The notes under the pieces are model-generated. The model was not told the DNA's origin, ran no database searches, and saw only the letters and a program-made list of their open reading frames with translations. This document shows, piece by piece, positions 4,099 to 56,531 of a stretch of 56,531 bases of DNA. The stretch's first letter is position 1, and each line of letters begins with the position of its first letter. The position numbers were made by a program, and so were the translations under genes. Origin of the DNA: a virus; IMG/VR virus record IMGVR_UViG_3300028578_000004, positions 1 to 56,531 of that record. The stretch is one strand, 5' to 3'.

Positions 4099-4463
4099 AC
4101 CCCGTGTGCGGCAAGAGACATCTCGGAGCCTTCGATCGTTGCGAGCTCCCCGCCGGCCACGACCGCGCCCCACGCAAGCCCCTTCGGCAACGCTCCGAAA
4201 AGCAGGAGGTCAAAGAGTCCGAGTGGCAAGCAATCAAGCGCCGCAAGGTCAACCGGCAACGGGCGATTCACGGCTTCACCTTCTGCGAACGATGCGGCAA
4301 GCGCACCAAATGGCTCCAGTGCCACCACACGGACTACCGGAGCCGCGGAGGGTCGAACACCGAGGACAACGCCGAACTACTCTGCACGGGCCCGGGGTCA
4401 TGCCATGAGCGTGAACACGGCACGCCCTGGCCGAAAGATCGCGAAGACCCCGAAGGTACTTGA
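4095..4463 (+). CDS. HNH endonuclease
   Basis: CERCGKRTKWLQCHHTDYRSRGGSNTEDNAELLCTGPGSCHEREH. The start is taken at TTG 4095, which overlaps the upstream stop. GTG 4104 is an alternative. Confidence 0.8.
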   Translation: MNPVCGKRHLGAFDRCELPAGHDRAPRKPLRQRSEKQEVKESEWQAIKRRKVNRQRAIHGFTFCERCGKRTKWLQCHHTDYRSRGGSNTEDNAELLCTGPGSCHEREHGTPWPKDREDPEGT

Positions 4464-4488
4464 ACCCCGACCACGCGACTGCTAATCT
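4460..4488 (+). promoter_or_regulatory. Candidate sigma-70-type promoter
   Basis: TTGAAC (4460-4465), a 17-nt spacer, then TAATCT (4483-4488). It lies in the 86-nt gap after the HNH gene and ahead of the 4550 operon. Confidence 0.4.
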
Positions 4489-4532
4489 CGGTCCCACAAC
4501 TGAATAAGCGGGGTACACCACACCCCGAGAAA

Positions 4533-4545
4533 GGGATGAGCGACC
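4533..4545 (+). promoter_or_regulatory. Copy 1 of the exact 13-nt motif GGGATGAGCGACC
   Basis: The same 13-mer occurs at 15374 and 32835, each time in an intergenic gap just upstream of a small Cys-rich ORF. The internal ATG opens a 5-codon uORF (MSDPL) whose stop overlaps ATG 4550. Confidence 0.7.
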
Positions 4546-4549
4546 CTTT

Positions 4550-4906
4550 ATGAAGACTGAGACCGATTCGGCAACGGCGCTATTTATGGGGAAGTGTCGG
4601 CGCTGCAAGGCACCCCACCGATTCGAGTTCGAGAGGTTCGGTCCTCGCGCCGAGGCGGTCGCCCGCGATGCCAATGGAGACCTTCGCAATGTGCACGAGT
4701 GGGCTTGGAATGCCCCGCTCTCTGGCGTAGCCGATAATCGGCCCACCTGTAAGGAGTGTGGCTATCAGGGTCCTTGGCGGCTTAGCCGGATCGCGGGCAC
4801 GCACAATCCCGAGGTTGCCTGCAACGCTCGCTGCATGGGCGCGACTGGCCCCTCCTGCGATTGCTCCTGTGGCGGGCGCAACCACGGCGCGAGGTACGCG
4901 GCATGA
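4550..4906 (+). CDS. Cys-rich zinc-ribbon protein (118 aa)
   Basis: ATG start after the intergenic gap. CRRC, CKEC and a CDCSCGG cluster. Confidence 0.75.
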   Translation: MKTETDSATALFMGKCRRCKAPHRFEFERFGPRAEAVARDANGDLRNVHEWAWNAPLSGVADNRPTCKECGYQGPWRLSRIAGTHNPEVACNARCMGATGPSCDCSCGGRNHGARYAA

Positions 4907-6555: not shown

Positions 6556-7568
6556 CGGCCGATCACTCCGGGGACCACCGGGACCTCCGAGACATAGCGC
6601 GGCGACTGCGGGAGAAGCCGCGGCAGGCCGTTAGGGATATGGAACTCGTTACGGTAACGGGCTGGAACATTGACGAGGCCGCCGACGCTCTCGACAAAGC
6701 CGCAGACCGCATCGAACGCCTCACCCAGCCCGCGGGCGACACCGAGGAGCTGATAGAGAGGGCGCAGCGGTTCTTCGACGACCCGATTGCGGTCGGCGGC
6801 GGACGCGACCTCGTTGGGCGGCTCGTCTCTGCCCTCATAGCCGCAGAGGCCCGCCACGTACGCGACCAGGAATGGATTGACAGGTTTCAAGGCCTGGCGG
6901 CGGCTAAAGAGCTAGAACGTCTCGGGCTCTTGCAGTCCATAGCTAAGAGCGTGCAGGGATGCGAAGACGTTCTCGATGGGCCGGACCCCACCGCTCGGGT
7001 GGTCGAACTCGTTGCGGAATGGGTTACACGGGCAGAGACCTCAGAGGCCCGCACCAACGACGACCCCCTTATCAAGTCGCTGACGGAGGAACTGTCCGCA
7101 TCGGAGGCCGAGCGCGTCGCGTTGAAGGAGGACTCGAAGCGCAAGGACGCGCTGATCCAACAAGCCCGCGATGACGCGGCGAAAGTGCGAGCGGAAGTCG
7201 ATGCGTTCCTGAACGGCCCTCACTATGCGGCGATGGTCGGAGCCTCTGAGAACCTCGCCGCTGCGACCAGTAGAGAGGAAGCCCTACGAGAGGCTGCGCA
7301 GAAGGCGATCGAGCGCATGGCTTCGATGGGTGCGCCGCCTCTGGTGTGGCGTGAACTTGCTAACGCGCTGGCCGAGCCTCCTTCCTCTCCGACTAAAACC
7401 GGGCCGAATCCCAACTGCCCCGAGTGCGCTGAAGAACGTCGAGCGCGGATACAGGCCACAGTTGCTTCGGCTATGGCGTCATCGGAGCGGGTGACGCCCG
7501 ATTACGAGACAGCTAGAGAATGGCCGAATTGCACGCACTCTTCCCGTAGAGAGGGAGAGGACGCATGA
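6552..7568 (+). CDS. Hypothetical coiled-coil protein (338 aa)
   Basis: GTGA overlap start. Long Ala/Glu/Arg-rich helical regions and a CPEC motif near the C-terminus. Confidence 0.75.
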   Translation: MTADHSGDHRDLRDIARRLREKPRQAVRDMELVTVTGWNIDEAADALDKAADRIERLTQPAGDTEELIERAQRFFDDPIAVGGGRDLVGRLVSALIAAEARHVRDQEWIDRFQGLAAAKELERLGLLQSIAKSVQGCEDVLDGPDPTARVVELVAEWVTRAETSEARTNDDPLIKSLTEELSASEAERVALKEDSKRKDALIQQARDDAAKVRAEVDAFLNGPHYAAMVGASENLAAATSREEALREAAQKAIERMASMGAPPLVWRELANALAEPPSSPTKTGPNPNCPECAEERRARIQATVASAMASSERVTPDYETAREWPNCTHSSRREGEDA

Positions 7569-10034: not shown

Positions 10035-10384
10035 GCGTCCTGCACTTTCCGCGAAGCGAAACCATCATGGGCCCGCCCCTGTTCGATGAGCATGAGCTGA
10101 CGGTTCGTCTGTTTGAGATCGGCCTCGGGATGCCCACCTGCCCGGACTGCGGCGATGACCTGTACGAACCCGACTGCCACGCAGATGGCTGTCCCCGGAT
10201 CGAGACGTGCGGTCAGTGCTATCAGCGCCTCCCCGATGGGACGTTCGGCTACCTGACGCCGTATCACCCCAACCCGCCCGACCTGTACGCGGCGCGGGAG
10301 GGCGAGACGTTCGAGGAACGAGCCGTACGGATCGATGCGTGGTGGGAAGAGCACCTGCGCGAGCACCACGGGGCCGCGTCGTGA
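10031..10384 (+). CDS. Zinc-ribbon protein (117 aa)
   Basis: GTGA overlap start. Contains CPDC, C..C and CGQC motifs. Confidence 0.65.
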   Translation: MSVLHFPRSETIMGPPLFDEHELTVRLFEIGLGMPTCPDCGDDLYEPDCHADGCPRIETCGQCYQRLPDGTFGYLTPYHPNPPDLYAAREGETFEERAVRIDAWWEEHLREHHGAAS

Positions 10385-11885: not shown

Positions 11886-12086
11886 CTGACCACGGCCCTC
11901 GTCTTACTCGACCGCACCACCTGCCCGGACTGCGGCCAAGAGACGCGCGAGGTCGTGATCGAAGAACCAGCCCTGTTGAGACACGGAGGCTACGGAGCGA
12001 CCAGACGCTCGGACCTCACGGTCTGTCCGCGGTGCGGATGGGTCTTCGTGTCCTGCGTCCAAGAGGTGAGCCCCCGCAGGTCGTAA
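11886..12086 (+). CDS. Possible zinc-ribbon ORF without a canonical start codon
   Basis: Hand-translated frame with high GC3 and CPDC..CPRC pairs. The frame is open from 11829 to TAA 12084-12086, but there is no ATG, GTG or TTG before the first CxxC. CTG 11886 is the first NTG codon. Confidence 0.35.
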   Translation: MTTALVLLDRTTCPDCGQETREVVIEEPALLRHGGYGATRRSDLTVCPRCGWVFVSCVQEVSPRRS

Positions 12087-13327: not shown

Positions 13328-14974
13328 GTGGCTGACCCCGCCCCCAAGATCGAAGTCGCCCGCACCATGCCGACCGACCTGCTCACGAGCGGTCGATGGC
13401 GAACCTGGTCCGAGCCCGACAAGGTCAAGCTCCGCAACGTCTTAAGGCGCGCGAAGTTCCGGCGGACCTACGAGTACGACCCGGTCGCGTTCGTGCATGA
13501 CTGCTTCAAGTGGGACGACCTGCCGGACTCAGGGCCGGCCCCGTATCAGTCCGACGTGCTGGCGAAGCTCGTGGAGGAGCACCGGGTCGCGCTGCGCGGT
13601 CCCCACGGGTTGGGGAAAAGTTCCTGTCTGGCGTGGGCGATCCTGTGGTTCGCGCTCACCCGCGATGGCGACAACTGGAAGGTCCCGACCACGGCATCGG
13701 CACGGGCGCAACTTCGGCTCTACCTCTGGCCAGAGGTCCACGTTTGGGTTCGTCGACTACGGTGGGAGGCCATCGGTCGGGACCCGTTCATCGAAGGCCG
13801 CGACCTGCTGGACGAAGCCCTCAAACTCGACACCGGCGAGGCGTACGCGTTGGCATCGAACGACCCGGCGAAGATGGAGGGCGGCCACGCGGACCGGATG
13901 CTCATCATCTACGACGAGGCGAAGAAGATCCCGGCCGGTACGTTCGAGGCGTTCCAGGGAGCCGTGTCAAACGCCGGCCCCGAGACCGGCAGGGAAGCGC
14001 TCGAGCTGATGGGCTCGACCCCCGGCGACCCACATGGCCACTTCTACCAGGTGAACCAGAGGCGGGTCCCGGGCTACAAGCTCATCATCGTCACCAAGGA
14101 GATGGCGATCGCGGCGGGCCGGATGTCTCCCTCGTGGGTCGAGCGCATGAAGACCGTGTGGGGCGAGCACTCGGCGACGTACATCCGTAGGGTCGAGGGA
14201 AACTTCGCCGCCGGCGATGAGAAGTCCGTTCTGCCTCAAGCGTGGGTGGAGGCCGCGGTCGAGCGGTGGACGGAGGCCGCGGTCCCAGCAGTCGGTGACG
14301 CGGACCTGCTCGAGGGCAGGGTGTTCGACGGCCTGATGCTGCCGGAAGAGCTCGTGGGCCCGCTGTCGGTCGCGTCGATGGACGTCGCAGACTCGGGAGA
14401 CGACCGCACGACGATCGCACTGCGACACGGCCCGGCCATCATCCGGCTACAGGAGTTCCCGTACGACCCGGACGCCCACCTCATGGCCGCGACCGGTGCA
14501 CTGGTCGCGATCCTCAGGGGAGCGGAGGCTGGGTTCGCGACCGTTGACTCGGTCGGCGTCGGGGCCGGGGTGCTCGCGCGGCTCCAGGAGCTCCGACGCA
14601 CGGGCGAGATCCGTGAGGACCCCGTGGGCTTCATCGCCCAAGGGAAGTCCGACCTCATGGACGAGACCGGCTCTTACGGGTTCAGGGACCTGCGAGCCGA
14701 GGCGTGGTGGGGATTCCGACAGCGCCTGCACCCGACCAAGGGCGACGGGATCATGCTGCCACCTCACGATGAGCTGCAGGCCGAGCTCACGGTATCGGGA
14801 TGGCGCGCCTTGTCAGAAGGCCGCATCCGCATCGAAGAAAAGGACGAGGTCAAAAAGGCCGACCGCCTCGGCCGCTCCCCCGACCTCGCGGACGCGGTGG
14901 TCATGGCGTTCTGGGCGCGCCCCGCGGTCGCGTACTCGCAGACCGGACGGGGGCGACGGATTCCGGGGATGTAG
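13328..14974 (+). CDS. terL: Terminase large subunit
   Basis: 548 aa. Walker A LRGPHGLGKSS and Walker B LIIYDEAKK, with a C-terminal nuclease-like half. The start is GTG 13328, with ATG 13367 as an alternative. Confidence 0.9.
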   Translation: MADPAPKIEVARTMPTDLLTSGRWRTWSEPDKVKLRNVLRRAKFRRTYEYDPVAFVHDCFKWDDLPDSGPAPYQSDVLAKLVEEHRVALRGPHGLGKSSCLAWAILWFALTRDGDNWKVPTTASARAQLRLYLWPEVHVWVRRLRWEAIGRDPFIEGRDLLDEALKLDTGEAYALASNDPAKMEGGHADRMLIIYDEAKKIPAGTFEAFQGAVSNAGPETGREALELMGSTPGDPHGHFYQVNQRRVPGYKLIIVTKEMAIAAGRMSPSWVERMKTVWGEHSATYIRRVEGNFAAGDEKSVLPQAWVEAAVERWTEAAVPAVGDADLLEGRVFDGLMLPEELVGPLSVASMDVADSGDDRTTIALRHGPAIIRLQEFPYDPDAHLMAATGALVAILRGAEAGFATVDSVGVGAGVLARLQELRRTGEIREDPVGFIAQGKSDLMDETGSYGFRDLRAEAWWGFRQRLHPTKGDGIMLPPHDELQAELTVSGWRALSEGRIRIEEKDEVKKADRLGRSPDLADAVVMAFWARPAVAYSQTGRGRRIPGM

Positions 14975-15305
14975 GGGTCGGCCCGGCGAAGCTCGTGCAA
15001 GCCTGTGACCTGGGCAAACGCGCCCGATTGGCAAATCGTTTTCGCTTGGCCCCCGGCACGTTCGTACATGCCCGCCTAGGCATCGGGTCAGAATGAAATC
15101 GTTCATAAAACGTGGCGCTGAATCCGAGCGGGCCATCGCATGTCACGATGACGTCGTTCGGAGGTCGATCTGTCAACTGAGGAGCGGGGCGACCCCTTCA
15201 ACTCCGACCCGGTCTGTCTCACCGATCCCCGATGCTCGGCCGCCCCCGCCCCTTGCTCCTTCAAGGTGTTATCGGAGTGGGGGCGAAACCGAAAGCGCAT
15301 AGCCT

Positions 15306-15318
15306 GCGAATAATTCGC
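15306..15318. promoter_or_regulatory. Perfect palindrome GCGAAT-A-ATTCGC (operator-like)
   Basis: 13-nt AT-rich dyad in a GC-rich genome, 56 nt upstream of motif copy 2 and next to TTGCAA (15326-31). Confidence 0.35.
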
Positions 15319-15373
15319 GTCCCATTTGCAAACGGGAATATGACGCCCCTACCGAGTACACTTCCACCCAACA

Positions 15374-15386
15374 GGGATGAGCGACC
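15374..15386 (+). promoter_or_regulatory. Copy 2 of the 13-nt motif GGGATGAGCGACC
   Basis: Exact repeat. The internal ATG opens a 10-codon uORF (MSDLEEDPYG) whose stop overlaps the start region of the 15402 ORF. The GAGGAGGA RBS follows the motif. Confidence 0.7.
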
Positions 15387-15401
15387 TTGAGGAGGACCCC
15401 T

Positions 15402-15587
15402 ATGGCTGATGCCGCGCCCAGCGTTGCGCTGCCCGTAGACTGGGCGTGTCGACGATGCAGGTCACCGATCGAGGCGTGTGCCAACTGCCGGTTGTCGGAT
15501 CGGTCGTACATCGGTTGCGACTATCACGGCTACTGCTCAGAGTGCGCTGACGCCTTGGGTAACGAACTAGCTCGGTGGACCTCGTGA
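15402..15587 (+). CDS. Cys-rich zinc-ribbon protein (61 aa)
   Basis: GAGGAGGA RBS 7 nt upstream of ATG 15402. Contains CRRC, CANC and CSEC. Confidence 0.7.
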   Translation: MADAAPSVALPVDWACRRCRSPIEACANCRLSDRSYIGCDYHGYCSECADALGNELARWTS

Positions 15588-17462: not shown

Positions 17463-17659
17463 CCCTTGCCCTAACGATCGCGGTGTGCGCGGTGGTCGGC
17501 GGACTCATCGGGGCCGTGATCGGTGGCGGGTTCGCCGACATCGCGAGCGACGCGGATCTGCGGGAGGAGTGGTTCCTCCATAGACTGAGGCTCATGGCGA
17601 TCATCGGTGAGGCCGCGCTACTGGGGGCCGCGACGTGGGTGGGGTCGTGGGTCGGGTGA
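17459..17659 (+). CDS. Small membrane protein (66 aa)
   Basis: ATGA overlap start. Two hydrophobic segments (LALTIAVCAVVGGLIGAVIGG and AIIGEAALLGAATWVGSWV). Confidence 0.65.
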   Translation: MTLALTIAVCAVVGGLIGAVIGGGFADIASDADLREEWFLHRLRLMAIIGEAALLGAATWVGSWVG

Positions 17660-18922: not shown

Positions 18923-19348
18923 GTGAGTGCCGAAGTGTTCTATTACCACGGTGGCCCACCCGATCTGCGCGTGGGTGATCTGATCGAGCCGCAACCCATG
19001 GACCGGGGCCGCCATCTTGTCGATGGGTGCCCGGTGTGCGAGGCCCGGAAGAACGGGAAGCCCTCCGACTACGACCAGAACCACCGATTCGATCGGGTCT
19101 ACGTCACAACCGACAAGTTCGTTGCGAAGTGTTTCGCCGCTGGCTATCCGAGAGGGAGCCTCTACCGGGTCGAGCCGATCGGCGACTTGGAACCCGATCC
19201 AGAGCATGAGCAGTCGTTTGCGGTGCCTGCGGCTCGAATCGTGAAGGTCGCTGAACGAGGGATCGACCCGAGCCGTTGGTCGAAGGCGGACGTTCGGAGG
19301 TTCCTGAAGCTCGGCGGGGTCGCCCAAAGCCTCCGTACAACCACGTAA
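18923..19348 (+). CDS. Arr-family (rifampin ADP-ribosyltransferase-like) ADP-ribosyltransferase homologue
   Basis: By eye it shows the Arr pattern: FYYHGGPPDLRVGDLIEP (compare the Arr consensus Y-x-HGT..L.VGD.L.P), RVYVTTD, then GSLYRVEPIGDLEPDPE (compare Arr consensus I-F/Y-I-VEP-x-G-x-x-E-DDPN) and RIVKV. It carries an extra CPVCEARKNG insertion. Confidence 0.65.
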   Translation: MSAEVFYYHGGPPDLRVGDLIEPQPMDRGRHLVDGCPVCEARKNGKPSDYDQNHRFDRVYVTTDKFVAKCFAAGYPRGSLYRVEPIGDLEPDPEHEQSFAVPAARIVKVAERGIDPSRWSKADVRRFLKLGGVAQSLRTTT

Positions 19349-20400: not shown

Positions 20401-20778
20401 ATGGCAGAGTGCGCCTTCTGCGAGATCATCGCTGGCAACGCTCCGGCTAAGTTTGTGAATCGCAACGCCGACGCCAGCGCGTTCGTGCCTTTGAACCCCG
20501 TGGTGGAGGGGCACGTGCTGGTGGTCCCTCACAGGCACGCCCGATACATTTGGGAACTCGACTCGTCGTCTTTAGCGATGGCTGTGGCGATGGCCGCCCA
20601 GCTGGCCACAAACATCGCCTGCAACGTCATCCAATCGAACGGGGTAGCCGCGACGCAGACGGTTCCGCACGTTCACTTCCACATCGTTCCACGGAGCGGG
20701 GGCGATGGCCTGATGTTGCCGTGGACAGGGCAGACCGAAGGCGCGGTTCCAAGCACTCCTGAAGGTCCCTGTGACTGA
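20401..20778 (+). CDS. HIT-family (histidine triad) nucleotide hydrolase or transferase
   Basis: N-terminal CAFCEII and the histidine triad VPHVHFHIVPR. Confidence 0.85.
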   Translation: MAECAFCEIIAGNAPAKFVNRNADASAFVPLNPVVEGHVLVVPHRHARYIWELDSSSLAMAVAMAAQLATNIACNVIQSNGVAATQTVPHVHFHIVPRSGGDGLMLPWTGQTEGAVPSTPEGPCD

Positions 20779-25228: not shown

Positions 25229-25900
25229 ACGGGCCGGTCGCGCGCGGGCTAGGCTTCATCCCGTCACCGTTCTGAGAGCCGGTGACACCCGTCTGGGAGG
25301 GACGGGGGCGTGTGGGCCTTTCACACTGTCGGCCCTAACGGGGTCGCTCCGGGCTGTTTCGAGCGATACCCGTGCGCCCCCTCCCGTGGGCCTGTAGAGT
25401 GAGCGGACATTCCACGGCAGGCAAAGAGGTGTCCCCGAGCCGCCTTCCTAGGGCGTGGCGGTAGGGCGAGTTCCGTTCAAGGCTCGGTGCAGGACGGGAC
25501 GATGGCGAGAGGCGTCTCCAAGGATCTTCGGATCGGAGGGGGCGCCTTCGCCGCGTCTGGGCTACGATGGCAACCACGCCCATCCCCGGGCCGAGCCACC
25601 CGGAAGCCCCGTCTTCGAGTCTCTCCCAATGCTCAACGGACGGGGCTTCCCCGCGTAGAATCTCCAGCGGGGGCTACCGCCTCGGACCCGCTGGAACGGA
25701 TTCGAGAACCCCATCTCAGAGGGACCCGTTTGCACGCGGTCCCTCTTTGCGTGCCGGGGTCCGCGAAATCCTTGACAAGCCGCGGTAACGTTGCCCTCAT
25801 TCGAGCACGCCCCGTCGAAGCCACGGGGCCGCAGTCGCAGGCGATAGGCCGTAGAGCCCGCCCGACCCGCTCCTCGCATTGCCGTATCCCGCGTTTTCGC
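25229..25900 (+). ncRNA. Candidate large structured RNA (class unknown)
   Basis: There is no credible ORF. At least nine perfect helices are present:
- 25263-69/25280-86
- 25288-93/25301-06
- 25384-89/25412-17
- 25435-41/25481-87
- GGCG-TCTCC..GGAGG..CGCC enclosing GATC-TTCG-GATC at 25523-34
- A 12-bp stem at 25602-13/25639-50
- 25664-71/25687-94
- 25719-26/25738-45
- 25810-15/25823-28
There are also four TTCGAG T-loop-like elements. The strand is assumed from the operon direction. Confidence 0.45.
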
Positions 25901-29465: not shown

Positions 29466-31292
29466 ATGAGGTCGTACCGGTACACCATCGTCAGCGACGC
29501 GGCGAACGGCAACCGCATCGTCGATGCCCAGGTCGAGATTCGCGAGCTCGGCACGACCACGCTCGCGACCGGCGTCTACATCGCTGAGACCGGAGGCGAC
29601 CCGCTCGATCCACCGCGACTGCTGTCCAAGGAGTCCGGAATTGTCGAGTACTGGCTGGACGATCCGCGCGACGTCACGCTGCACATCTCGAACACGGGGG
29701 CCGCGCACTACCACGGGTCCACCGGGATACTGCCGTCGTTTTCGTACCTGATTACCTCGCGATCCGACCGCGCGGCCGGGGCGATCTTCGTGCCGGTAGG
29801 GACGCTCAACGAGACGAACGTGCAGGACGCGCTCACGCAGGAGAACGCGCAGCGCACCGCGGCAGACGCGACCCTCACGTCCGATGTGGCCGCGAAGATC
29901 CCGCTCGCGCAGAAGGGCGCGGCGAACGGTGTAGCTCCACTCGGAGCTGACTCGAAGGTGCCAGCCGCGAACCTGCCGGATGCTCCTGCCGACGCGGTTA
30001 CGTCGGTCAACACTCAGACCGGCGCGGTGGTGCTGGACGCGGGAGACGTGGGGGCCGCGGACGCGGCCTCGACCGAAACCGGGATGGCGGAACTCCTCGG
30101 GCTTCACCATCAGGAGCGGCTTCAGCGTCGACGCCTCGGCCACATGAACATCGGCGTGGCGGGCATCACGTTGCGACACGATGATGGGGACGCTGCGGAC
30201 TACACGAAGACGTTTCCGATCGAGCGCGACAGGGGCATCATCGGAACATTCGCCCTCGTCGCGAGCTACCTGAACGACCCCGGCAAGCTGACGACCGCGC
30301 AGATTGTGGAAATGCTTCAGTACGGCAACGCGATGGCCACGCACTCCGACACACATGCTAACTACGCGGCGGGAGCGTGGACAGAGGCGGACCTGCAATC
30401 AGAGGTCGTGGCTCCGAGGGAAACGATCGAAGCCCTCCACGCGCTCATCCGGGCCGAGCTTTGGGTGACCCCCGGCACCTTCAATATGTTCCTCAATGAC
30501 TCCGAGTGGGCCGAACGCCACGGCACCCTCGTCCAGAGTAATTACGTCGCGGCGACGGGTTTCTCGTACGACACGTTCCATTGGCCAAATCAGGAGATAT
30601 ACGGATCGGCCCCGTACGCGATCGACGCGGAGACCGTGGCCGCGGTGAAGGCTCGCATTGACCAGGCTGTCGCAAACCGCGACGTGCTGCACCTGTCGCT
30701 TCACTCATGGCGACTGGACACGGCCGGCTACATGACGACAGCGCAGTACACGGAGGTCTGCGACTACATCAAGAGCTACATGGACGCGGGCATGCTCGAA
30801 AGCTTGACGGTGCCGGGTGGCCTGTTCGCTCAGCCTCACGGCGAATGGGAAGACCTCATCCGCGAGGGCGACTTCGAGAACCTTCCGTACGCAAACGCGA
30901 CGTGGGGCCCGTGGTCAGCGACCGCCGCCCCGGTGCTAAAGACCGATGGTGGCGCGGACGGGACCGACAACTACGTCCAGTGTTCGTCTACCAACCGAAT
31001 CTCCCAGAGCCGTTACAACGTTGCCGACTCAGACGTCGAGAAAGCGCACTACCGTTTCCGCTGCAAGGTCCGCAACTCCACGGGAACCGGCAGCGCCTAC
31101 TCCGTTCTGCTCCAGGACTCCACCGATCCGGGGCGCTGGCTGGTCTCGCTCTCGGGCGCGGCGGCGACTTCGTGGTCGACGCTCGAACGCTGCGTCACCG
31201 TCCCCGCGGGCCTGGATCGCGTCTCAGTCGTATTGCAGTCCTCCGGTGCTGGGTTCATCGACTACGACCAGGTCGAAATGAGGCGACTCTAA
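29466..31292 (+). CDS. Tail-fibre-like protein with a polysaccharide deacetylase (CE4/NodB) domain and a C-terminal carbohydrate-binding-like domain
   Basis: Fibre repeat VTSVNTQTGAVVLDAGDVGAAD. NodB motifs LRHDDGDAADY and MATHSDTHANY. The C-terminal beta-rich domain starts at GDFENLPY. Confidence 0.75.
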   Translation: MRSYRYTIVSDAANGNRIVDAQVEIRELGTTTLATGVYIAETGGDPLDPPRLLSKESGIVEYWLDDPRDVTLHISNTGAAHYHGSTGILPSFSYLITSRSDRAAGAIFVPVGTLNETNVQDALTQENAQRTAADATLTSDVAAKIPLAQKGAANGVAPLGADSKVPAANLPDAPADAVTSVNTQTGAVVLDAGDVGAADAASTETGMAELLGLHHQERLQRRRLGHMNIGVAGITLRHDDGDAADYTKTFPIERDRGIIGTFALVASYLNDPGKLTTAQIVEMLQYGNAMATHSDTHANYAAGAWTEADLQSEVVAPRETIEALHALIRAELWVTPGTFNMFLNDSEWAERHGTLVQSNYVAATGFSYDTFHWPNQEIYGSAPYAIDAETVAAVKARIDQAVANRDVLHLSLHSWRLDTAGYMTTAQYTEVCDYIKSYMDAGMLESLTVPGGLFAQPHGEWEDLIREGDFENLPYANATWGPWSATAAPVLKTDGGADGTDNYVQCSSTNRISQSRYNVADSDVEKAHYRFRCKVRNSTGTGSAYSVLLQDSTDPGRWLVSLSGAAATSWSTLERCVTVPAGLDRVSVVLQSSGAGFIDYDQVEMRRL

Positions 31293-32039: not shown

Positions 32040-32819
32040 ATGAGCGATGACGCAGGTCTCATCGGGCTGGGGTCCGCCCCCTCCCCCGTGGCAGACGCAG
32101 GCTCGGGTCCCTGTAGCCCCTGGATCAACGCGACGGACGTGGAGCAACTGACGGGCTGCACCGACGTTGACGCGGACGAACCCATGATCGAGGTCGCGTC
32201 CGGCGTGCTCTACAAGCTGTCTGGCGAGCAGTATCCGGGGGTCTGTTCCACGACGGTCAACCCCGGGGTCTACTGCGGGTGCGGGGACGCGACGGGACCG
32301 TGCTGTGCGGGGGTCCGCTACCTCGTGCTCGGGGCGCTGCCGGTCGTTGCGGTCCAGGAGATCAGGCTAGACGGTGAGGTCGTCTCGCCATTCGAGTACC
32401 GCCTGCACGGACAACGCCTCTACCGCCTGCCGGACGGGAACAACGTTCGCCAGGTGTGGCCGTGCTGCCGCAGACCCGACCGCGTACCGGACGAACGGAT
32501 CGAGGTCGACTTCACGTACGGGGAGGCACCTCCGCGCGCGGGCGTTCTGGCGGCTGCGACGCTCGCGTGCGAGCTCCTGCGTGCGACCGGCGAGACGGAG
32601 GGCGAGTGCCGTCTTCCGCAACGCGTCCAGACGATCACGCGTCAGGGGATCACGATGGCGATGCTCGACCCCATGGCGTTTCTCGACAACGGGCGAACGG
32701 GGATCTATGAGGTCGACCTCTTCCTCGCGTCGTACGTGGAGTCCGCGGGCAAGCGGTCGTCTGGCGTCGTGAACCCGGATACGGTGCGGGCGCGGCGCGC
32801 GGAGTCGTCTCCAGCGTAG
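32040..32819 (+). CDS. Head-to-tail adaptor (connector) candidate
   Basis: 259 aa. The position and general resemblance to actinophage adaptor proteins suggest the call. Not verified. Confidence 0.5.
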   Translation: MSDDAGLIGLGSAPSPVADAGSGPCSPWINATDVEQLTGCTDVDADEPMIEVASGVLYKLSGEQYPGVCSTTVNPGVYCGCGDATGPCCAGVRYLVLGALPVVAVQEIRLDGEVVSPFEYRLHGQRLYRLPDGNNVRQVWPCCRRPDRVPDERIEVDFTYGEAPPRAGVLAAATLACELLRATGETEGECRLPQRVQTITRQGITMAMLDPMAFLDNGRTGIYEVDLFLASYVESAGKRSSGVVNPDTVRARRAESSPA

Positions 32820-32834
32820 GATCAGGTGACACAA

Positions 32835-32847
32835 GGGATGAGCGACC
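32835..32847 (+). promoter_or_regulatory. Copy 3 of the 13-nt motif GGGATGAGCGACC
   Basis: Exact repeat in the 43-nt gap, followed by the AAGGAGG RBS and ATG 32863. TAGGAT (32818-23) lies upstream. Confidence 0.7.
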
Positions 32848-32862
32848 CCAAGGAGGCGCCGA

Positions 32863-33048
32863 ATGGAGACCCCCTGGGCGAACTGCACGACCTGCGGCGA
32901 ATACCGCCCGGTGTTCGTGCGCTTCGAGCCTGACGGAGCCCCGTACTGCCGCGGGTGCGGTGCACATCGCATGGAGCTGGAGGTCTTCCCCGCTGCCCTA
33001 GAAGACGTGCCGATCGTTGACGCAACGCAGGACGATCCGCCCGAGTGA
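32863..33048 (+). CDS. Zinc-ribbon protein (61 aa)
   Basis: AAGGAGG RBS. Contains CTTC and CRGC pairs. Confidence 0.7.
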   Translation: METPWANCTTCGEYRPVFVRFEPDGAPYCRGCGAHRMELEVFPAALEDVPIVDATQDDPPE

Positions 33049-34004
33049 ATCTCGCGGCGCTCCTGCACATGGGCGTTCCGCGTCACGGCGCCGGGGCGGA
33101 ATGGTACGTACATGATCTTCTGAGGTGGCTGGTCAGCCGCGGCCACACAGTGACCGTCTACGTGGCTCGCGGCAAGGACGACCCGTACGAACTTGACGGC
33201 GTCCGCTACGTCTCGTCACCGACGATCCCCGATGCCGAAGCGCGCGCTGCCGACCTGCTGGTCACGCACCTGGATATGACGCGGCACACGATCATGCTCG
33301 CCCGACGAGTGGGAAAGCCGACTGCCTTCGTCGTGCACAACCATCGCCAGCTAGCGTTTCACCGCGTACGCCCGCGCGACGCTGCGCTCGTGATCTTCAA
33401 CTCCCGGTGGGTCGCGCGTGCCTCGAAGTGGAGGGGGCCGCAGATTGTCCTTCCGCCCCCGATCCAGGCGTCCCGCTACCAGGTGACCGTAGAGGGCGAC
33501 GCGATCACACTCCTAAACCTCTCAGAGGCCAAGGGAGGGCCGCTACTGTTCGAGCTGGCCCGAAGGATGCCCGGACGCCGGTTCTTGGCTGTAAGGGGCG
33601 CATACGGCCGTCAGGAGGTCCCTGACGACGTGCCGGCCAACGTGGAGGTGTGGGACAACCAACCTGATGTCCGCGAGGTCTACCGGCAGACGCGCCTTCT
33701 GCTCATGCCGTCGGCATATGAGTCGTGGGGACGGGTCGCGGTCGAGGCTGCCGCGTCCGGCATTCCGACCATCGCGCATCCGACCGAGGGGCTGCTCGAG
33801 TCCGTGGGGCCGTGCGCGATCTTCTGCGACCGGGCCGACCCCGGCCAGTGGACGAGAGCGATCGGCGACTTGGACGACCCGGTCGAGTACCACCGGGCAT
33901 CGCGTCTGGCAGTTGCTCGTGCGACCGAGCTCGACCCCGTGCCGTGGCTGTACGAGGTCGAGGCGGCGCTACGGGAAGCGGCCGGCGCGATGGTGAAGGC
34001 GTGA
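33045..34004 (+). CDS. GT-B fold glycosyltransferase (GT4-like)
   Basis: GTGA overlap start. The C-terminal motif is LLLMPSAYESWGRVAVEAAASGIPTIAHPTEGL (E-x7-E type). Confidence 0.8.
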   Translation: MNLAALLHMGVPRHGAGAEWYVHDLLRWLVSRGHTVTVYVARGKDDPYELDGVRYVSSPTIPDAEARAADLLVTHLDMTRHTIMLARRVGKPTAFVVHNHRQLAFHRVRPRDAALVIFNSRWVARASKWRGPQIVLPPPIQASRYQVTVEGDAITLLNLSEAKGGPLLFELARRMPGRRFLAVRGAYGRQEVPDDVPANVEVWDNQPDVREVYRQTRLLLMPSAYESWGRVAVEAAASGIPTIAHPTEGLLESVGPCAIFCDRADPGQWTRAIGDLDDPVEYHRASRLAVARATELDPVPWLYEVEAALREAAGAMVKA

Positions 34005-36426: not shown

Positions 36427-36656
36427 GCGGGCAAGGCGGCTGGTACTGCTCCGACTGCGGCCAGGTCGTATCGGGGCTCCCATCGGGAATTGTGCGCTGC
36501 CCGAACTGCGGTCACCTCGGCCTGCGTGGATTCGTCAACGCGGAACCCGTTCGAGTTCGCTGCCCCGAAGGGTGCGACTGGGAGGGCTGGGACGATGGCG
36601 GTGTCAACGATGACCTCGGCCAGCACATGCGCCGCGAGCACTTCACGCCACAATGA
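36423..36656 (+). CDS. Zinc-ribbon protein (77 aa)
   Basis: GTGA overlap start. Contains CSDC, CPNC and CPEGC. Confidence 0.65.
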   Translation: MSGQGGWYCSDCGQVVSGLPSGIVRCPNCGHLGLRGFVNAEPVRVRCPEGCDWEGWDDGGVNDDLGQHMRREHFTPQ

Positions 36657-37774
36657 GGATCGACTTCCTCGCCTCGGAGCCTCACTACTTCGATCACATT
36701 GCTCCGATCTGGGCCGCGTTGCCAGAGGCGATGAGAGGCGGTTTCCACGTTCGGCCCGCGATTGCGCCCTATGCCACTCAGAAAGGCGTTTCGGCCAACA
36801 CGCGGCTCCTGAGCGCCGCTGAGGGCGGTCCTGTGGTAGTAGCCGGATATGCCGATGTGCGCCGGGTGAAGGGGAGGCCGGTGATCCTCGCGGAACATGG
36901 GGTCGGCAACAGATACCGGAACGCCGCCGGCGAGTGGGACCGAAACCCGAGCAATCCCGGAGGCCGCGGTCGCGAGGCCGTCGCGCTGTTTCTGTGCCCG
37001 AACATCGAAACGGCCGAGGCAAACCTTGAGGTCTACCCGGACGCGAAAGTCGCTGTGGTGGGTTCCCCAAAAATGGACCGCCATCATCTAGAATCAGCGG
37101 GCGCTTTAGGCGCAACTACTAAAGACCTGGGTGCCGAGGGCCAGCGGACGAGCGGAGTGCACGCCGCGCAGACTCCGAAGGCTGGATCACAGGATCGGGG
37201 GGCGGGCCACGTAACTCTCGGCCACCCGCCCCTCACAATCGCCCTCTCGTGGCATTGGGATTGCAGGCAGGTCCCGGAGACGCGGTGGGCGTTCCCTCAC
37301 TTCGCGGATGCCGTTCGGCAGCTCCCCCACGACCTCGGCCCTGACTATCACGTCATCGGCCACGGCCATCCGCGCGCGTGGAGACGCCTGCGAGCCTTCT
37401 ACGAAGACGCGGGGATCGAACCCGTGGAGGACTTCGAGGACGTGCTGGACCGGGCCGACCTCTACGTCTGCGACACGTCCTCGACCCTGTACGAGTTCGC
37501 CTCGACCGGGCGGCCCGTGCTGTGCCTGAACGCGCCGTGGTACAGGTTCGAGGCAACCCACGGGTTGAGGTTTTGGGACGCGTTGCCGGGCGTCCCTGTA
37601 GGTGAACCGGTGTGGCTCGCCCGCATGGTCGCTGTGGCGCTCGATCCCGACACAGACGCGCTAGTCGCGAAGACCCTCCGCGAACCGGCCGTACGCCGCG
37701 CCTATGCTTTCACCGACGGACGAGCCGCGGAGCGCGCGGTGCAGGCAATCAGGGAGGTGTTCGTTGACGACTGA
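36653..37774 (+). CDS. Putative glycosyltransferase (GT-B or TagF-like)
   Basis: ATGA overlap start. The N-terminal IDFLASEPHYFDHIAPIWAAL and the C-terminal ADLYVCDTSSTLYEFASTGRPVLCL resemble actinophage glycosyltransferases. Confidence 0.6.
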   Translation: MRIDFLASEPHYFDHIAPIWAALPEAMRGGFHVRPAIAPYATQKGVSANTRLLSAAEGGPVVVAGYADVRRVKGRPVILAEHGVGNRYRNAAGEWDRNPSNPGGRGREAVALFLCPNIETAEANLEVYPDAKVAVVGSPKMDRHHLESAGALGATTKDLGAEGQRTSGVHAAQTPKAGSQDRGAGHVTLGHPPLTIALSWHWDCRQVPETRWAFPHFADAVRQLPHDLGPDYHVIGHGHPRAWRRLRAFYEDAGIEPVEDFEDVLDRADLYVCDTSSTLYEFASTGRPVLCLNAPWYRFEATHGLRFWDALPGVPVGEPVWLARMVAVALDPDTDALVAKTLREPAVRRAYAFTDGRAAERAVQAIREVFVDD

Positions 37775-40672: not shown

Positions 40673-40729
40673 CCGCTCAGGTCGTATCGTGGTCGCCCTA
40701 ACCGAGGATGACCGCGAAGGGATTGAGCG

Positions 40730-41155
40730 ATGACCGAGCAGCCTGAGAAGCAGGGCACCCCGATGTGGTTCGAGCTACAGGACGAGAAGTTCCGATGCAT
40801 CCCCAAGCTCGCCGCCTCTGTGCTCATCGCCCACGAACGGGCTATGTCGGCCGAAGGGGCTGGGCGCGGGATGGTCGTGCTGGCCGAGCTCGACAACTAC
40901 CTCCGTAAGGCCCTGCTGCCTGAGGAGTACGTGCGGTACCGGACCTTCGCCGATGACCCGGCGCGTGAGATCGAGATCGAAGACATCGGATTCGCGGTCA
41001 TGGACCTGCACGCGAGGTATCTCGCCCGCCCTACCAAGCGGCCCTCGGACTCACCCGATGGGCCCGGCTCAACTGGGGATACCTCGACGGATTCCTCGCC
41101 CTCCGAGGACTCGACCTCGACACCCTCGCCCGCGGAGACGCCCGAAGGTTCCTGA
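40730..41155 (+). CDS. Tail assembly chaperone (G-like)
   Basis: Lies immediately upstream of the tape measure gene. The ending YLARPTKRPSDS is typical of actinophage chaperones. It has an S/T/P-rich tail. Confidence 0.7.
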   Translation: MTEQPEKQGTPMWFELQDEKFRCIPKLAASVLIAHERAMSAEGAGRGMVVLAELDNYLRKALLPEEYVRYRTFADDPAREIEIEDIGFAVMDLHARYLARPTKRPSDSPDGPGSTGDTSTDSSPSEDSTSTPSPAETPEGS

Positions 41156-51211: not shown

Positions 51212-51661
51212 GTGGAGCCGACCACCTTTACCACCGCGGAAGCCTGTGCGTTGACGGGCGTGGACTCGCGGCGCCTGACGGAGTGGATCGGGCGGGGCCT
51301 CATCCCTGGGCAGAAGCCCAAGCGTCAGGGCTCGCCGGGCAAGGAGCAACGGCGGTACACGTTTGCGCAGATCGACCGGATACGGGAGTTGAAAGCGCAG
51401 GGGCGCAAGAGAAGTAAGCGCACCCCGACCCCCTCGCCCGAGGGGTTGCTGTCCACCCAAGAGGTCTGCGATCTCACTGGCGCGACATACCGGCAGGTCA
51501 CGTACTGGGTGGATCGTGGCTACGTGAAGGCAGAGCGGCGCAAGCCTCCGGGTGTGAAGATCGCGTTCTTCTTCGATCAGATCGCTGTGGAACGGATTCA
51601 GCGCCTCAAGGCGGCTTCCGATGAGCGTCGCAAACGCCTCGATGAGCAGGTCGCGTCGTGA
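51212..51661 (+). CDS. DNA-binding protein with two MerR/excisionase-type HTH repeats
   Basis: FTTAEACALTGVDSRRLTEWIGRGLIP and LSTQEVCDLTGATYRQVTYWVDRGYVK. GTG 51212 has no obvious RBS. Confidence 0.75.
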   Translation: MEPTTFTTAEACALTGVDSRRLTEWIGRGLIPGQKPKRQGSPGKEQRRYTFAQIDRIRELKAQGRKRSKRTPTPSPEGLLSTQEVCDLTGATYRQVTYWVDRGYVKAERRKPPGVKIAFFFDQIAVERIQRLKAASDERRKRLDEQVAS

Positions 51662-52410
51662 GCATCGTCCGCGTAGCAAAGCGCGAGCGCTACGTCATCA
51701 TCGATAAGACCGGGCTTGAGGACGCAGACCTTTCGTTCCGGGCTACCGGCCTGTTGTCCTACCTGCTGTCGAAGCCGGACCACTGGACGATTTCCTACCG
51801 GGCATTGGCCGAGGTCAAAAGAGAGGGCGAGCACGCTGTACTGACGGCCCTGGCCGAGCTTGAGGAAGCGGGCTATCTCAAGAGGCACCGCAAGCAGAAC
51901 GCGAGAGGCCAGTGGGAGTGGGAGCAGGTGCTCTATGAGTGCCCGACCTGTCTGCCCGAGGACGAGGCCGTGCCGCAGGAATCCCTGCATGGCGCGACCA
52001 GCACAAACGCAGAATCCCGAGACGCGGATACCCCTTCAGGGAAAAGCGCGGCTCATAGTGAAGAAGGATCAGTGAAAACTGACAGTGAAGAAACAGATAC
52101 GTTCGCCCACTTCTGGAGCCTCTACCCGACCCGCAACGGCAAGAGGCTCTACCGCGCAAAGGCAGAAGATCAGTGGAAGCGCCTTTGTCCTCCTGAGCGC
52201 GATCGGGCTATCGCCGGGGTTGAGCACTACCGGATCGCGTGTGGTACCGGGATCACCATCGCGAAGGACGCGTTCCGCTGGCTGCGCGACAAGGCGTTCG
52301 AGGACTGGCAGACCCCGGCCACCCCCGATGCATCGACCAACGGCCACCGCGGCAGACGACCGCCTCACCGAGTAGATGACGCGTGGGTCGGGGTGGAGGA
52401 GACGGTATGA
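51658..52410 (+). CDS. Replication initiation or organiser protein with a DnaD-like N-terminal winged helix
   Basis: GTGA overlap start. YVIIDKTGLEDADLSFRATGLLSYLLSKPDHWTISYRALAEV..VLTALAELEEAGYLKR. Confidence 0.6.
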   Translation: MSIVRVAKRERYVIIDKTGLEDADLSFRATGLLSYLLSKPDHWTISYRALAEVKREGEHAVLTALAELEEAGYLKRHRKQNARGQWEWEQVLYECPTCLPEDEAVPQESLHGATSTNAESRDADTPSGKSAAHSEEGSVKTDSEETDTFAHFWSLYPTRNGKRLYRAKAEDQWKRLCPPERDRAIAGVEHYRIACGTGITIAKDAFRWLRDKAFEDWQTPATPDASTNGHRGRRPPHRVDDAWVGVEETV

Positions 52411-55403: not shown

Positions 55404-55418
55404 GAAGGGACTGAGCGA

Positions 55419-56531
55419 ATGGCAGGCGGAAACCGCTACTACTTTTTCAAGCGCGACGGCGTGAACAAGCGTTACCTGCGCGTGACGACGATCATCGACC
55501 TCGGGATACCGAAGCCCGCGCTCATCGGGTGGGCGGCGCGCGTCACGGCAGAGGCCGCGTACGACGGGATCGCGACGCTGTACTCGTTCCAGAAGCGCGA
55601 TGACCGCGAGGCCGCGGTCGACTGGTTGAAGAGCCAGCGGTTCCGCAAGAAAGAGGAAGCAGCGCTCAAGGGCACGCAGATTCACACGGCGATCGAGGCG
55701 TACAAGCTCGGCCGGCCATACCCAGGGGTCCCGCGAAACGTGCGCCCGTTCTATGACGGGTTCCTGAGGATGCTGAACGACCAACGCCCGATCGTTCTCC
55801 AGACGGAGGCGAACGTCTTCAATGACAAGCGCGTATACGCGGGGACGCTCGACACGATCATGGTGTGGCCGAACCTGCCGAAGACGCTGGCTGCGCGCGG
55901 GATCGACGTCGAGGAGTTCTACCCGCAGCCGTGGAAAGACCCGCGGGGCCCGGTGCTCGTAGGCGACTACAAGTCGGGCTGGATATACCCGGAGGTCGCG
56001 TTGCAACTGACGGGGTACCGAAACAGTGAGTTCATCGGCGGGCCCGATGGCGCGGTGTACGAGATGCCGGAAACCGATGGCGGGATCGCGATCGCGCTGC
56101 GCCCGGGCTACACGGAGGTCATCCCCGTTGAGACCAGTGAGCGGGTGTGGAACGCGTTTCTGTTCGCGTACGAGATCGCGCGCTGGCAGGAGGACATCTC
56201 GAAGAACGTCATCGGCAAGCCGCTGCTCATCTACGAAGCCCCCCCCGGGCCCGAGAACCCCGACGACCTCGTCAAGCAGATAGGCGAGCTATGGGACCGA
56301 CTGGCCGCGGCAGAGGCCGAACTAGCCGACCCCCTGCCCGAGTACAAGGTCGCGACGTCAGGCCGCGGCGCGGACCCCAAGCGGCACGCGATCGCAGACC
56401 CGCCACCCAAGCATCAGTCAGGCAAGCAGTACGCGGCGCTGTGCGGGGGACAGGTAGCGAAGCCCGATGACAATGCCGAGACCTTCAACCCCTACGGGCG
56501 CAACGTGTGCGGGACGTGCGCGGCGAAGGCG
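55419..56531 (+). CDS. Cas4/RecB-like PD-(D/E)XK exonuclease with a C-terminal Cys-containing extension; runs off the window end and finishes at 128..169
   Basis: Hand-translated; absent from the ORF track because there is no stop within the window. Motifs GTLDTIMV, LVGDYKSG (D-x-K) and ALQLTGY (QxxxY). The C-terminal part has CGG..CGTC. Confidence 0.8.
   Translation, partial: MAGGNRYYFFKRDGVNKRYLRVTTIIDLGIPKPALIGWAARVTAEAAYDGIATLYSFQKRDDREAAVDWLKSQRFRKKEEAALKGTQIHTAIEAYKLGRPYPGVPRNVRPFYDGFLRMLNDQRPIVLQTEANVFNDKRVYAGTLDTIMVWPNLPKTLAARGIDVEEFYPQPWKDPRGPVLVGDYKSGWIYPEVALQLTGYRNSEFIGGPDGAVYEMPETDGGIAIALRPGYTEVIPVETSERVWNAFLFAYEIARWQEDISKNVIGKPLLIYEAPPGPENPDDLVKQIGELWDRLAAAEAELADPLPEYKVATSGRGADPKRHAIADPPPKHQSGKQYAALCGGQVAKPDDNAETFNPYGRNVCGTCAAKA
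56405..56531. repeat. Second copy of the 127-nt terminal repeat
   Basis: Identical to 1..127. Confidence 0.95.

Follow-up and report, generated by a model that had tools for sequence, protein, structure and literature searches.

A conserved 13-nucleotide motif beside start codons in a soil phage genome resembles the start-associated sequences of actinobacteriophages

The genome of an uncultured phage (IMG/VR record IMGVR_UViG_3300028578_000004, positions 1 to 56,531; this whole stretch of 56,531 nucleotides (nt) is called the window) carries three exact copies of the 13-nt motif GGGATGAGCGACC, each placed shortly upstream of a start codon. The same word, with one fixed base change, recurs before start codons at homologous places in a related phage. 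With moderate confidence, we interpret it as a real, conserved gene-expression signal like the start-associated sequences (SAS) of actinobacteriophages, that is, as a lineage-specific leader motif close to promoters and start codons that would act at translation initiation and be read by a lineage-specific factor. The existence of the motif, its orientation and spacing, its association with −10 hexamers, its positional conservation and the lineage-specific fixation of its position 5 were all observed in this analysis.

Copies of the motif in the window

The three exact copies lie at positions 4533-4545 (copy 1), 15374-15386 (copy 2) and 32835-32847 (copy 3), all on the + strand and all intergenic. 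From the end of the motif to the ATG of the following open reading frame (ORF) the distance is 4 nt for copy 1 (ATG at 4550) and 15 nt for copies 2 and 3 (ATG at 15402 and 32863, respectively). This confirmed the preliminary description of the sequence, which had reported three exact + strand copies in intergenic gaps, 4 to 15 nt before start codons. The gaps extend 86 nt past the end of an HNH gene (4463) for copy 1, 427 nt past the end of the large terminase gene (14974) for copy 2 and 43 nt past the end of the head-tail adaptor gene (32819) for copy 3. The extended conserved word reads A(A/C)AGGGATGAGCGACC.

Two variant copies with a one-base insertion were found in addition, both on the + strand. 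The first, GGGATTGAGCGA at 40719-40730, leads straight into the start codon of the tail assembly chaperone gene (ATG at 40730) and is the degenerate fourth copy of the preliminary description. The second, GGGACTGAGCGA at 55407-55418, had not been listed there; the ATG at 55419 comes immediately after it and opens a gene of about 384 amino acids (aa), located before the Gp3-like gene, that crosses the end of the window and reaches to about position 169. Close to the first variant, a decayed remnant of the motif (GAGGATGACCG, 40703-40713) aligns with an exact motif of the related phage (L169:12870, see below), and given this remnant the exact homology of the 40719 variant to that motif is ambiguous.

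A scan of both strands of the window with one or two mismatches allowed gave no ungapped near-copies above chance level, and neither minus-strand nor intragenic copies were found in the window. As to an antisense partner, a single chance-level match on the minus strand of the window was obtained at up to three mismatches.

No copy of GGGATGAGCGACC appeared in 100 dinucleotide shuffles of the window, in line with the earlier statement that three exact copies are not expected by chance. The copy number alone is nevertheless weaker evidence than it appears, because about six word families of 13- and 14-mers reach at least three copies in the window, versus 0.35 words expected from a second-order Markov model. 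These other repeats exist because of codon bias in similar peptides, and it is the context, not the count, that sets the motif apart. One coding-level repeat in the window is the 14-mer CTCATCGGGGCCGT, present at 17504, 23418, 28791 and 49525 in three exact copies and one copy matching at 13 of 14 positions; it is always in frame as LIGAV in the N-terminal transmembrane helices of four ORFs and is not regulatory.

Conservation of the motif in related phages

Searches with the terminase, the adaptor and the Gp3-like protein led to a relative, here called phage B, which consists of three contigs (L120, L169 and L201) from one sample, SRR33995925, with a total length of about 39 kb. Its aa identity to the window is 66% for the terminase, 66% for the adaptor and 49% for the Gp3-like protein. 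Phage B contains seven exact copies and one partial copy of GGGACGAGCGACC, on the + strand, intergenic, directly before start codons and with AAA or AAG in front, the exact word in this phage being GGGAcGAGCGACC. Position 5 is T in all canonical copies of the window and of L145, a JGI contig (Ga0196963), and C in all eight copies of phage B. The easiest explanation of such a concerted change would be a single reader common to all sites, encoded by phage or host, that is not the same in the two lineages.

The window and phage B have five homologous site positions in common despite diverged flanks, all of them on the + strand. Copy 1 (4533) corresponds to L201:15199, with a leader that is about 85% identical. 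Copy 2 (15374) has its counterparts in L120:4775, with the change of T to C, and in L145, where the motif is identical. Copy 3 (32835) corresponds to L169:3985, which follows right after the adaptor stop codon. The variant at 40719 matches the region of L169:12870, where the motif is exact, and the variant at 55407 matches L201:8843, an exact motif that abuts the ATG. In L145, the flanks of the copy 2 site are identical to those of the window from the −10 hexamer into the ORF, except for one base deleted between hexamer and motif; 8 nt into this ORF, the two sequences diverge. The presence and positional conservation of the motif in relatives, with five sites shared with phage B, and the result of the shuffles support its earlier characterization as a non-random intergenic regulatory word in a single orientation; absence from relatives, or a position that is not kept there, had been named in the preliminary description as a ground for refuting it.

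The leader of copy 1 deserves a separate description. About 55 nt before and around the motif (4495-4552 in the window, L201:15160-15217 in phage B) are approximately 85% identical, and the ORFs that follow are unrelated. The leader contains a GC hairpin, CGGGG...CCCCG in the window and CGGGG...CTCCG in phage B; of the promoter upstream, only the −35 and −10 hexamers are kept.

Outside phage B and L145, the motif arrangement was absent from 187 other matches retrieved from IMG/VR, the JGI metagenomes and the GTDB genomes. Scans of IMG/VR with 14- and 15-mers gave single scattered matches consistent with chance. A pattern consisting of the motif and a Shine-Dalgarno (SD) sequence had no match in IMG/VR, 24 in the JGI metagenomes and 15 in the GTDB genomes; nearly all were in-frame coding sequences for 'GMSD.EE' or chance matches, and the only true relative among them was L145. 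A host-genome origin of the motif was rejected because the GTDB and JGI pattern matches were nearly all coding or chance. The terminase-based search of IMG/VR returned no relative. For cultured phages, comparison with 50,697 records by megablast, blastn and tblastn gave nothing above about 30-34% aa identity and no motif match. An adaptor homologue with 82% identity, P0122, is known from a protein search.

Position of the motif relative to the Shine-Dalgarno sequence, the start codon and the −10 hexamer

Alignment of nine full sites resulted in the consensus AAAGGGA-Y-GAGCGACC, usually followed by C. All 14 sites, variants included, are adjacent to an SD sequence or to a start codon, and two classes could be distinguished. 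At the eight class II sites (copies 2 and 3, L145, L120:4775, L169:3985, L169:6958, L169:12870 and L169:13192) the motif without exception ends 0-3 nt from a canonical SD sequence. The start codon lies 14-18 nt further on, and in five of them this distance is exactly 15 nt. In the window, copy 2 is separated by 2 nt from the SD sequence GAGGAGG (15389-15395) and copy 3, likewise by 2 nt, from AAGGAGG (32850-32856). The six class I sites (copy 1, L201:15199, L201:8843, L120:6847 and the window variants 40719 and 55407) have no separate SD sequence. Here the start codon overlaps the motif, abuts it or follows within 4 nt, and GGGA is found 7-13 nt before the ATG; at three of these sites the start codon overwrites the 3' end of the motif. 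The location in the position of the ribosome-binding site (RBS), 3-9 nt from the start codon, which is typical of SAS, is thus present at the six class I sites and absent at the eight class II sites.

A hexamer of the type TANNNT, which is the −10 type of actinobacterial SigA promoters, ends 8-14 nt upstream of the motif at all eight class II sites. Counted over independent positions, it is present at five of six (copy 1, with the near miss TACACC, being the sixth), which corresponds to P ~1e-8 to 1e-10. In the TA-poor window, the background frequency of TANNNT is 0.8% of all positions and 2.3% at a comparable distance from starts. For copy 2 the hexamer is TACACT (15357-15362, +), which ends 11 nt upstream of the motif and is conserved in L145 and L120. 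For copy 3 it is TAGGAT (32817-32822, +), which includes the stop codon of the adaptor gene and ends 12 nt upstream of the motif; TAGGAT is found in phage B as well. TATCGT (40685-40690, +) lies upstream of the variant copy at 40719, and the same TATCGT stands in phage B 14 nt upstream of its motif. No hexamer, or only a distant one, accompanies copy 1 and B8, its homologue, 55407 and B7, its homologue, and L120:6847. The −10 link is frequent, not universal, whereas the link to the start codon or RBS holds everywhere.

Upstream of copy 1, direct reading of the sequence revealed a candidate SigA-like promoter, TTGAAC-17 nt-TAATCT (4460-4488, +), which ends 44 nt before the motif. Its counterpart in phage B, at the same place, reads TTGCAC-17 nt-TAGCAT. 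A promoter and terminator scanner of the Escherichia coli type, which is not tuned to actinobacterial promoters, gave nothing at the three exact sites.

The 3' tail expected for actinobacterial 16S rRNA is ...CCUUUCU-3'. By inspection, (A)AAAGGGA is complementary to this tail and GAGCGACC is not; the comparison is with the general actinobacterial tail, and the motif lacks the canonical AGGAG core. No shared upstream inverted repeat was seen at the sites, a palindrome, GCGAATAATTCGC, being present before copy 2 only. This palindrome (15306-15318) is a perfect one of 13 base pairs (bp) that stands between a conserved noncoding block and copy 2, just past a TAGCCT hexamer, and is kept in L145. 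It resembles a putative binding site for a dimeric DNA-binding protein.

Genes downstream of the motif

The motif had been described as always preceding a small zinc-ribbon gene. This applies to the three exact copies of the window, whose downstream ORFs are indeed Cys-rich, with 9, 7 and 4 Cys, and does not apply to the homologous and additional sites. Copy 1 is followed by an ORF of 118 aa with 9 Cys (4550-4906, +), the C-terminus of which matches phrog_6842 and which is unrelated to the ORF at the homologous site of phage B. The ORF after copy 2 has 61 aa and 7 Cys (15402-15587, +); at the same site, L145 carries a Cys-free ORF of 106 aa and L120 a different ORF of 127 aa. Copy 3 precedes a zinc-ribbon-like ORF of 61 aa with 4 Cys (32863-33048, +), in the place of which phage B has a C5 DNA methylase gene. 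Taken over the other motif sites, the downstream genes code for a DNA methylase, a Clp_N-domain protein, the tail assembly chaperone and proteins of 382 aa, of 64 aa with one Cys and of 106 aa without Cys. About 12 of the 89 ORFs of the window have at least two CxxC-like pairs. The zinc-ribbon association, three out of three, is suggestive within the window, does not generalise and is incidental. Between the three zinc-ribbon ORFs of the window no alignment was found, and the idea that the motif is a relic of gene duplication was rejected for want of detectable paralogy among them.

At three sites shared between the window and phage B or L145, the downstream ORFs are unrelated. What precedes copies 1, 2 and 3, be it sequence or gene, is conserved, and the ORF that follows differs between phages; before the chaperone gene phage B has the arrangement motif-gene-motif where the window has one site. 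The 5' edge of gene-replacement slots is in this way marked by the motif, which we take to be a consequence of shared expression signals at module joints and not its primary function.

Some further observations concern these small genes. In phage B, a gene of 126 aa (L120:3867-4503) is bracketed by direct repeats of GGGGTGAAACC(C)GAAAGC, which is the 3' end of the conserved block, and looks like a cassette inserted at a short repeat. The source gene caller missed the ORFs 4550-4906 and 15402-15587 on the parent contig (L117) and called the second of them on the sister contig (L119). The ORF 4550-4906 has atypical GC values by codon position, yet matches a PHROG at its C-terminus. A 25-mer, CCACCTGCCCGGACTGCGGC..., occurs at 10134-10158 and 11917-11941, and also at 7411-7435, with 92% identity, and encodes zinc-ribbon knuckles of sequence TCPDCG, which suggests a set of paralogous small zinc-ribbon genes in the early region.

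A possible start-associated leader motif and its alternatives

The tight spacing of the motif to the SD sequence and the start codon points to an action at translation initiation, on the mRNA. That the distance from the −10 hexamer is not fixed speaks against a core promoter element. We infer from the sequences that transcripts start at these places and that the motif exerts its effect as RNA, with the participation of a trans-acting factor. The motif would then be located in the 5' untranslated region, on the coding strand, of a subset of genes. At class II sites it would occupy the first 15-20 nt of a short leader made from an internal promoter, and at copy 1 the leader would originate from the −35/−10 promoter 44 nt upstream. 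AAAGGGA would pair with the 3' tail of 16S rRNA; at class I sites it would itself be the SD sequence, and class II sites would gain from it a second docking site further upstream. Since GAGCGACC has no pairing with rRNA, it is presumably read by something else, possibly as a linear sequence by a factor whose specificity varies between phage lineages. The internal ATG and the zinc-ribbon genes would be incidental. Among the alternatives that the preliminary description had listed, a conserved 5' leader fits best.

Several observations weigh against this interpretation. The independent sites are few, eight positions in two or three phages, and the phage sequence was found in two soil DNA runs only. 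The leaders of copies 1 and 2 are kept as whole blocks, which could reflect recent exchange and not selection on the 13-mer. At copy 1 the distance of 13 nt from GGGA to the ATG is long, and the class II sites already have a good SD sequence, so that a translational role of the motif is not required there. Its frequent position at about +1 to +20 relative to a −10 hexamer fits a DNA operator equally well. No copy of the motif was present in relatives with a terminase identity of 55% or less (L121, L122, L125, L126 and L128), nor in L168, whose adaptor is 70% identical; a crude screen for repeated words gave no obvious substitute motif in those distant relatives. Finally, no candidate for the reader protein emerged: in about 50 ORFs scanned against Pfam and PHROGs, with some 38 small ORFs outside the scan, the only DNA-binding types obtained were a LexA-type winged helix-turn-helix (wHTH) protein (1439-1792), a MerR-type helix-turn-helix (HTH) protein (51212-51661) and an HTH_36 protein (51658-52410).

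A more specific and distinctly speculative form of the leader motif interpretation, to which we give little weight, is that the motif constitutes the recognition site of a phage-encoded, sequence-specific factor on the 5' leader beside the RBS. This factor, maybe an RNA-binding protein and possibly one of the many small zinc-ribbon proteins, would turn on or off the translation of a dispersed regulon of accessory and assembly genes, its specificity having co-evolved with the motif (T versus C at position 5). If true, two orthogonal motif-reader systems amenable to study would be available in this clade, together with a first handle on the unexplained motifs of the SAS type.

The main rival, and a serious one, is a DNA operator: an asymmetric site for a phage DNA-binding protein, located just past the −10 hexamer at about +1 to +20, that would repress or gate internal transcription units in the way of a stoperator or of an operator close to the promoter. 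Such an operator accounts equally well for the −10 association and for the lineage-specific base, although on balance we find it possible but rather unlikely. The word is asymmetric, has 13 bp and lies between genes in one orientation, the linkage to a TANNNT hexamer 8-14 nt upstream is tight, and fixation of position 5 by lineage would suit co-evolution with a DNA-binding protein, for which the LexA-type, MerR-type and HTH_36 proteins of the phage would be at hand. For the upstream extension of the Cluster K motif, the extended start-associated sequence (ESAS), DNA-binding proteins were favoured by the authors who described it (PMC3203893). However, the constant feature of the sites is the adjacency to SD sequence or start codon, seen in 14 of 14, and not the −10 hexamer. 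The overwriting of the motif's 3' end by the start codon, as at the three class I sites mentioned above, is odd for a fixed 13-bp operator. There is also no sign of a lysogenic repressor system, as no integrase or gene of the immunity-repressor type was among the scanned proteins, and the window has only five sites, versus the 20-30 stoperators of L5-like phages.

We considered it improbable that the motif is an RNA structure, processing or stability element. In this case, a small 5' hairpin, with GGG pairing to CCY around an 8-nt loop AYGAGCGA, would make the mRNA more stable, serve as a cleavage mark or be bound by a protein, as boxB or an operator hairpin is. GGG...CC(C) pairing is indeed possible, with stems that extend at copy 1 (AAAGGG/CCCTTT), at copy 2 (CAGGG/CCTTG) and in L120 (AGGG/CCCT); the hairpin is the minimum free energy (MFE) structure at copies 1 and 2, and its 3-bp form is part of the MFE fold of copy 3. 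The Cluster K and EF SAS consensus sequences share the outline GGG-N7-CCC (PMC3203893, PMC7302621). Yet the z-scores of the folds were not significant (−1.35, +0.85, +0.39, −0.38 and +1.42), the folds being no better than those of shuffled sequences. Across the sites the stem varies from 2 to 6 bp and is not kept everywhere, only 2-3 bp being possible at several of them (GG/CC at L169:13192 and L201:8843), and no compensatory change was seen. The strictly conserved part is the putative loop, which speaks for recognition of a linear sequence. No Rfam match was obtained at the gathering threshold or at E ≤ 5, and a tRNA scan found nothing.

Slightly less probable still is a recombination boundary devoid of a regulatory role, that is, a short linker that mediates the exchange of modules or travels with cassettes. 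The non-homologous genes downstream of homologous sites, the divergence of L145 8 nt into the ORF and the motif-gene-motif arrangement of phage B before the chaperone gene are all compatible with a linker, and a neighbouring cassette on L120 is bracketed by a different short direct repeat. On the other hand, a linker need not keep its distance to SD sequence or start codon, its strand or an upstream −10 hexamer, and 13 bases are very short for homologous exchange. The exactness of the word amid unrelated flanks argues for selection on the word itself.

Translational control coupled to an upstream ORF (uORF), opened by the ATG inside the motif, is highly improbable: the uORFs reported earlier for the three exact copies do exist (MSDPL, MSDLEEDPYG and one of 31 codons, hence 5, 10 and 31 codons, with the first two stops overlapping or closely following the main ATG), but ACG replaces the ATG in all eight copies of phage B, the window variants have ATT (40719) and ACT (55407), lengths and frames are not conserved, and no SD sequence stands at a usable distance before the internal ATG.

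Comparison with start-associated repeats of cultured actinobacteriophages

Since 2011, several clusters of actinobacteriophages have been found to carry start-associated repeats of their own, none with an assigned mechanism. The closest known analogues of the window motif are the SAS and ESAS of Cluster K, the SAS of Cluster EF and the repeats of Cluster EC.

The Cluster K SAS, GGGATAGGAGCCC, is an asymmetric 13-bp word found 3-7 bp before start codons, ahead of different gene families, the 3' positions of which cannot pair with rRNA (PMC3203893). An ESAS stands upstream of about half of its copies (PMC3203893); this element was later interpreted as a SigA-like promoter that includes an imperfect inverted repeat of 15-17 bp (PMC11373665). 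The number of SAS copies is 11-19, restricted to the non-structural arm (PMC3203893; PMC11373665; PMC12699233). The window motif likewise is an asymmetric 13-bp word that begins with GGGAT and ends in C residues, and direct counting gives 9 of 13 identical positions between GGGATAGGAGCCC and GGGATGAGCGACC. Both words occur in one orientation before mostly ATG starts of unrelated gene families, in larger upstream gaps, and are conserved in diverged relatives; both combine a 5' part that is SD-like, for the window motif by inspection against the general actinobacterial tail, with a conserved 3' part that does not pair with rRNA, and a SigA-like promoter, in the window a putative one, is often found upstream. 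The window motif differs in that it stands upstream of a separate SD sequence at the eight class II sites, taking the RBS position only at class I sites, and in the absence of the AGGAG core. It has five copies in the window and at least seven in the approximately 39 kb of phage B, compared to 11-19, its sites extend into the structural region, and no 17-bp inverted repeat was seen upstream of them. The phages themselves are unrelated, the aa identity to cultured phages being about 30% at most. Membership in the Cluster K SAS set has been defined by at most two mismatches to GGGATAGGAGCCC (PMC3203893, PMC12699233); with four mismatches to the Cluster K consensus, the window motif is an analogue and not a member.

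In Cluster EF Microbacterium phages, the SAS GGGAAAGGACCCC has 13 bp, is start-associated and occurs in about ten copies (PMC7302621). It shares with the window motif its length, its start association and a purine-rich stretch complementary to the 3' end of 16S rRNA (compare AAAGGGA, complementary by inspection), and in both cases a short conserved element is found upstream, GTAGAG in EF and GTACAC/TANNNT in the window. The 3' halves differ in sequence, and the EF motif is in the RBS position at all sites, the window motif only at class I sites.

The Cluster EC repeat, TAGaCTATaGGTgTaAgC, has 18 bp and is located 21-30 bp before start codons, upstream of the RBS (PMC7302621). Like the window motif, it keeps one orientation and lies upstream of the RBS in short gaps between genes, with copies spread over the early genes, the terminase-portal block and the structural genes. 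By our own reading of the published consensus, the EC repeat starts with a hexamer of the TANNNT type. The EC phages themselves also resemble the window in layout: all genes share one strand, about 17 ORFs separate the terminase gene from the portal gene, and glycosyltransferases are present. The two words are unrelated, though, and in EC hexamer and word form one fixed block, whereas in the window the distance between them ranges over 8-14 nt. A sigma factor is encoded by EC phages; the scanned proteins of the window included none.

The stoperators of L5-like (Cluster A) phages, to which the motif had been likened, are binding sites of the gp71 repressor in temperate phages and number 20-30 copies. 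The likeness is weak and holds as far as an asymmetric 13-bp word in short intergenic regions, co-oriented with transcription, is concerned. It does not extend to the number of sites (five in the window), to their being locked to RBS or start codon, or to the sequence, which is unrelated to the L5 consensus; nor was an integrase or an L5-type repressor among the scanned window proteins. Stoperators have been contrasted with SAS before (PMC3203893).

With its distinct sequence and its origin in a clade of uncultured soil phages, the window motif extends the phenomenon beyond the cultured clusters. Comparing its sites shows the start association to be the constant feature and both the internal ATG and the zinc-ribbon genes to be incidental ones. 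The one-base difference, T or C, between relatives amounts to a natural specificity swap and would point to a shared reader. Motifs of this kind are of practical use in settling start-codon calls and predicting internal promoters when phage genomes are rich in GC.

Genome context and additional observations

The window is a complete, circularly assembled genome: positions 1-127 are repeated exactly at 56405-56531, which leaves a unit of 56,404 bp. It has a GC content of 66%, with essentially all genes on the + strand. It derives from a soil metagenome assembly in ENA, and near-identical contigs are present in two soil DNA runs. Judged by its gene content, the window represents a siphovirus-like actinophage. 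The early genes code for the Gp3-like protein, RusA, HNH endonucleases, the LexA-type wHTH and MerR-type HTH proteins, a C5 methylase and an IstB-like ATPase. The large terminase gene (13328-14974, +) is followed by about 17 small ORFs, and the portal gene (21002) by that of a MuF-like protein. Further along the + strand are the genes of the major capsid protein (25879), the head-tail adaptor (32040-32819) and an amidase endolysin (48672), the last of these alongside glycosyltransferases and tail genes. In the approximately 50 ORFs covered by Pfam and PHROGs, no integrase, repressor family or sigma factor was detected.

Three additional features of the genome were noted. At 15183-15300, 3' of the terminase gene, there is a noncoding block of about 120 nt whose nucleotide identity to its counterparts in phage B and L145 (L120:3775-3895; L145 minus strand, about 655-790) exceeds 90%, against an identity of only 66% between the terminase proteins. 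Indels of 1-2 nt show that it is not coding; it has a stable predicted fold, with no covariation in the three sequences and no Rfam match. It could be a noncoding RNA, a packaging site or another cis element. Between the gene of the MuF-like protein and that of the major capsid protein, a gap of about 650 nt (25229-25878) is free of + strand genes. L128 has three small minus-strand genes in this place, and the window may hold a minus-strand gene there too, for example the ORF 25335-25583. Finally, unusual accessory functions are encoded at 18923-19348, 20401-20778, 29466-31292, 33045-34004 and 36653-37774. They comprise an Arr-like ADP-ribosyltransferase domain, a HIT-family hydrolase, a polysaccharide deacetylase domain in a tail protein and, inside the structural module, a GT4 glycosyltransferase and a CDP-glycerol glycerophosphotransferase.

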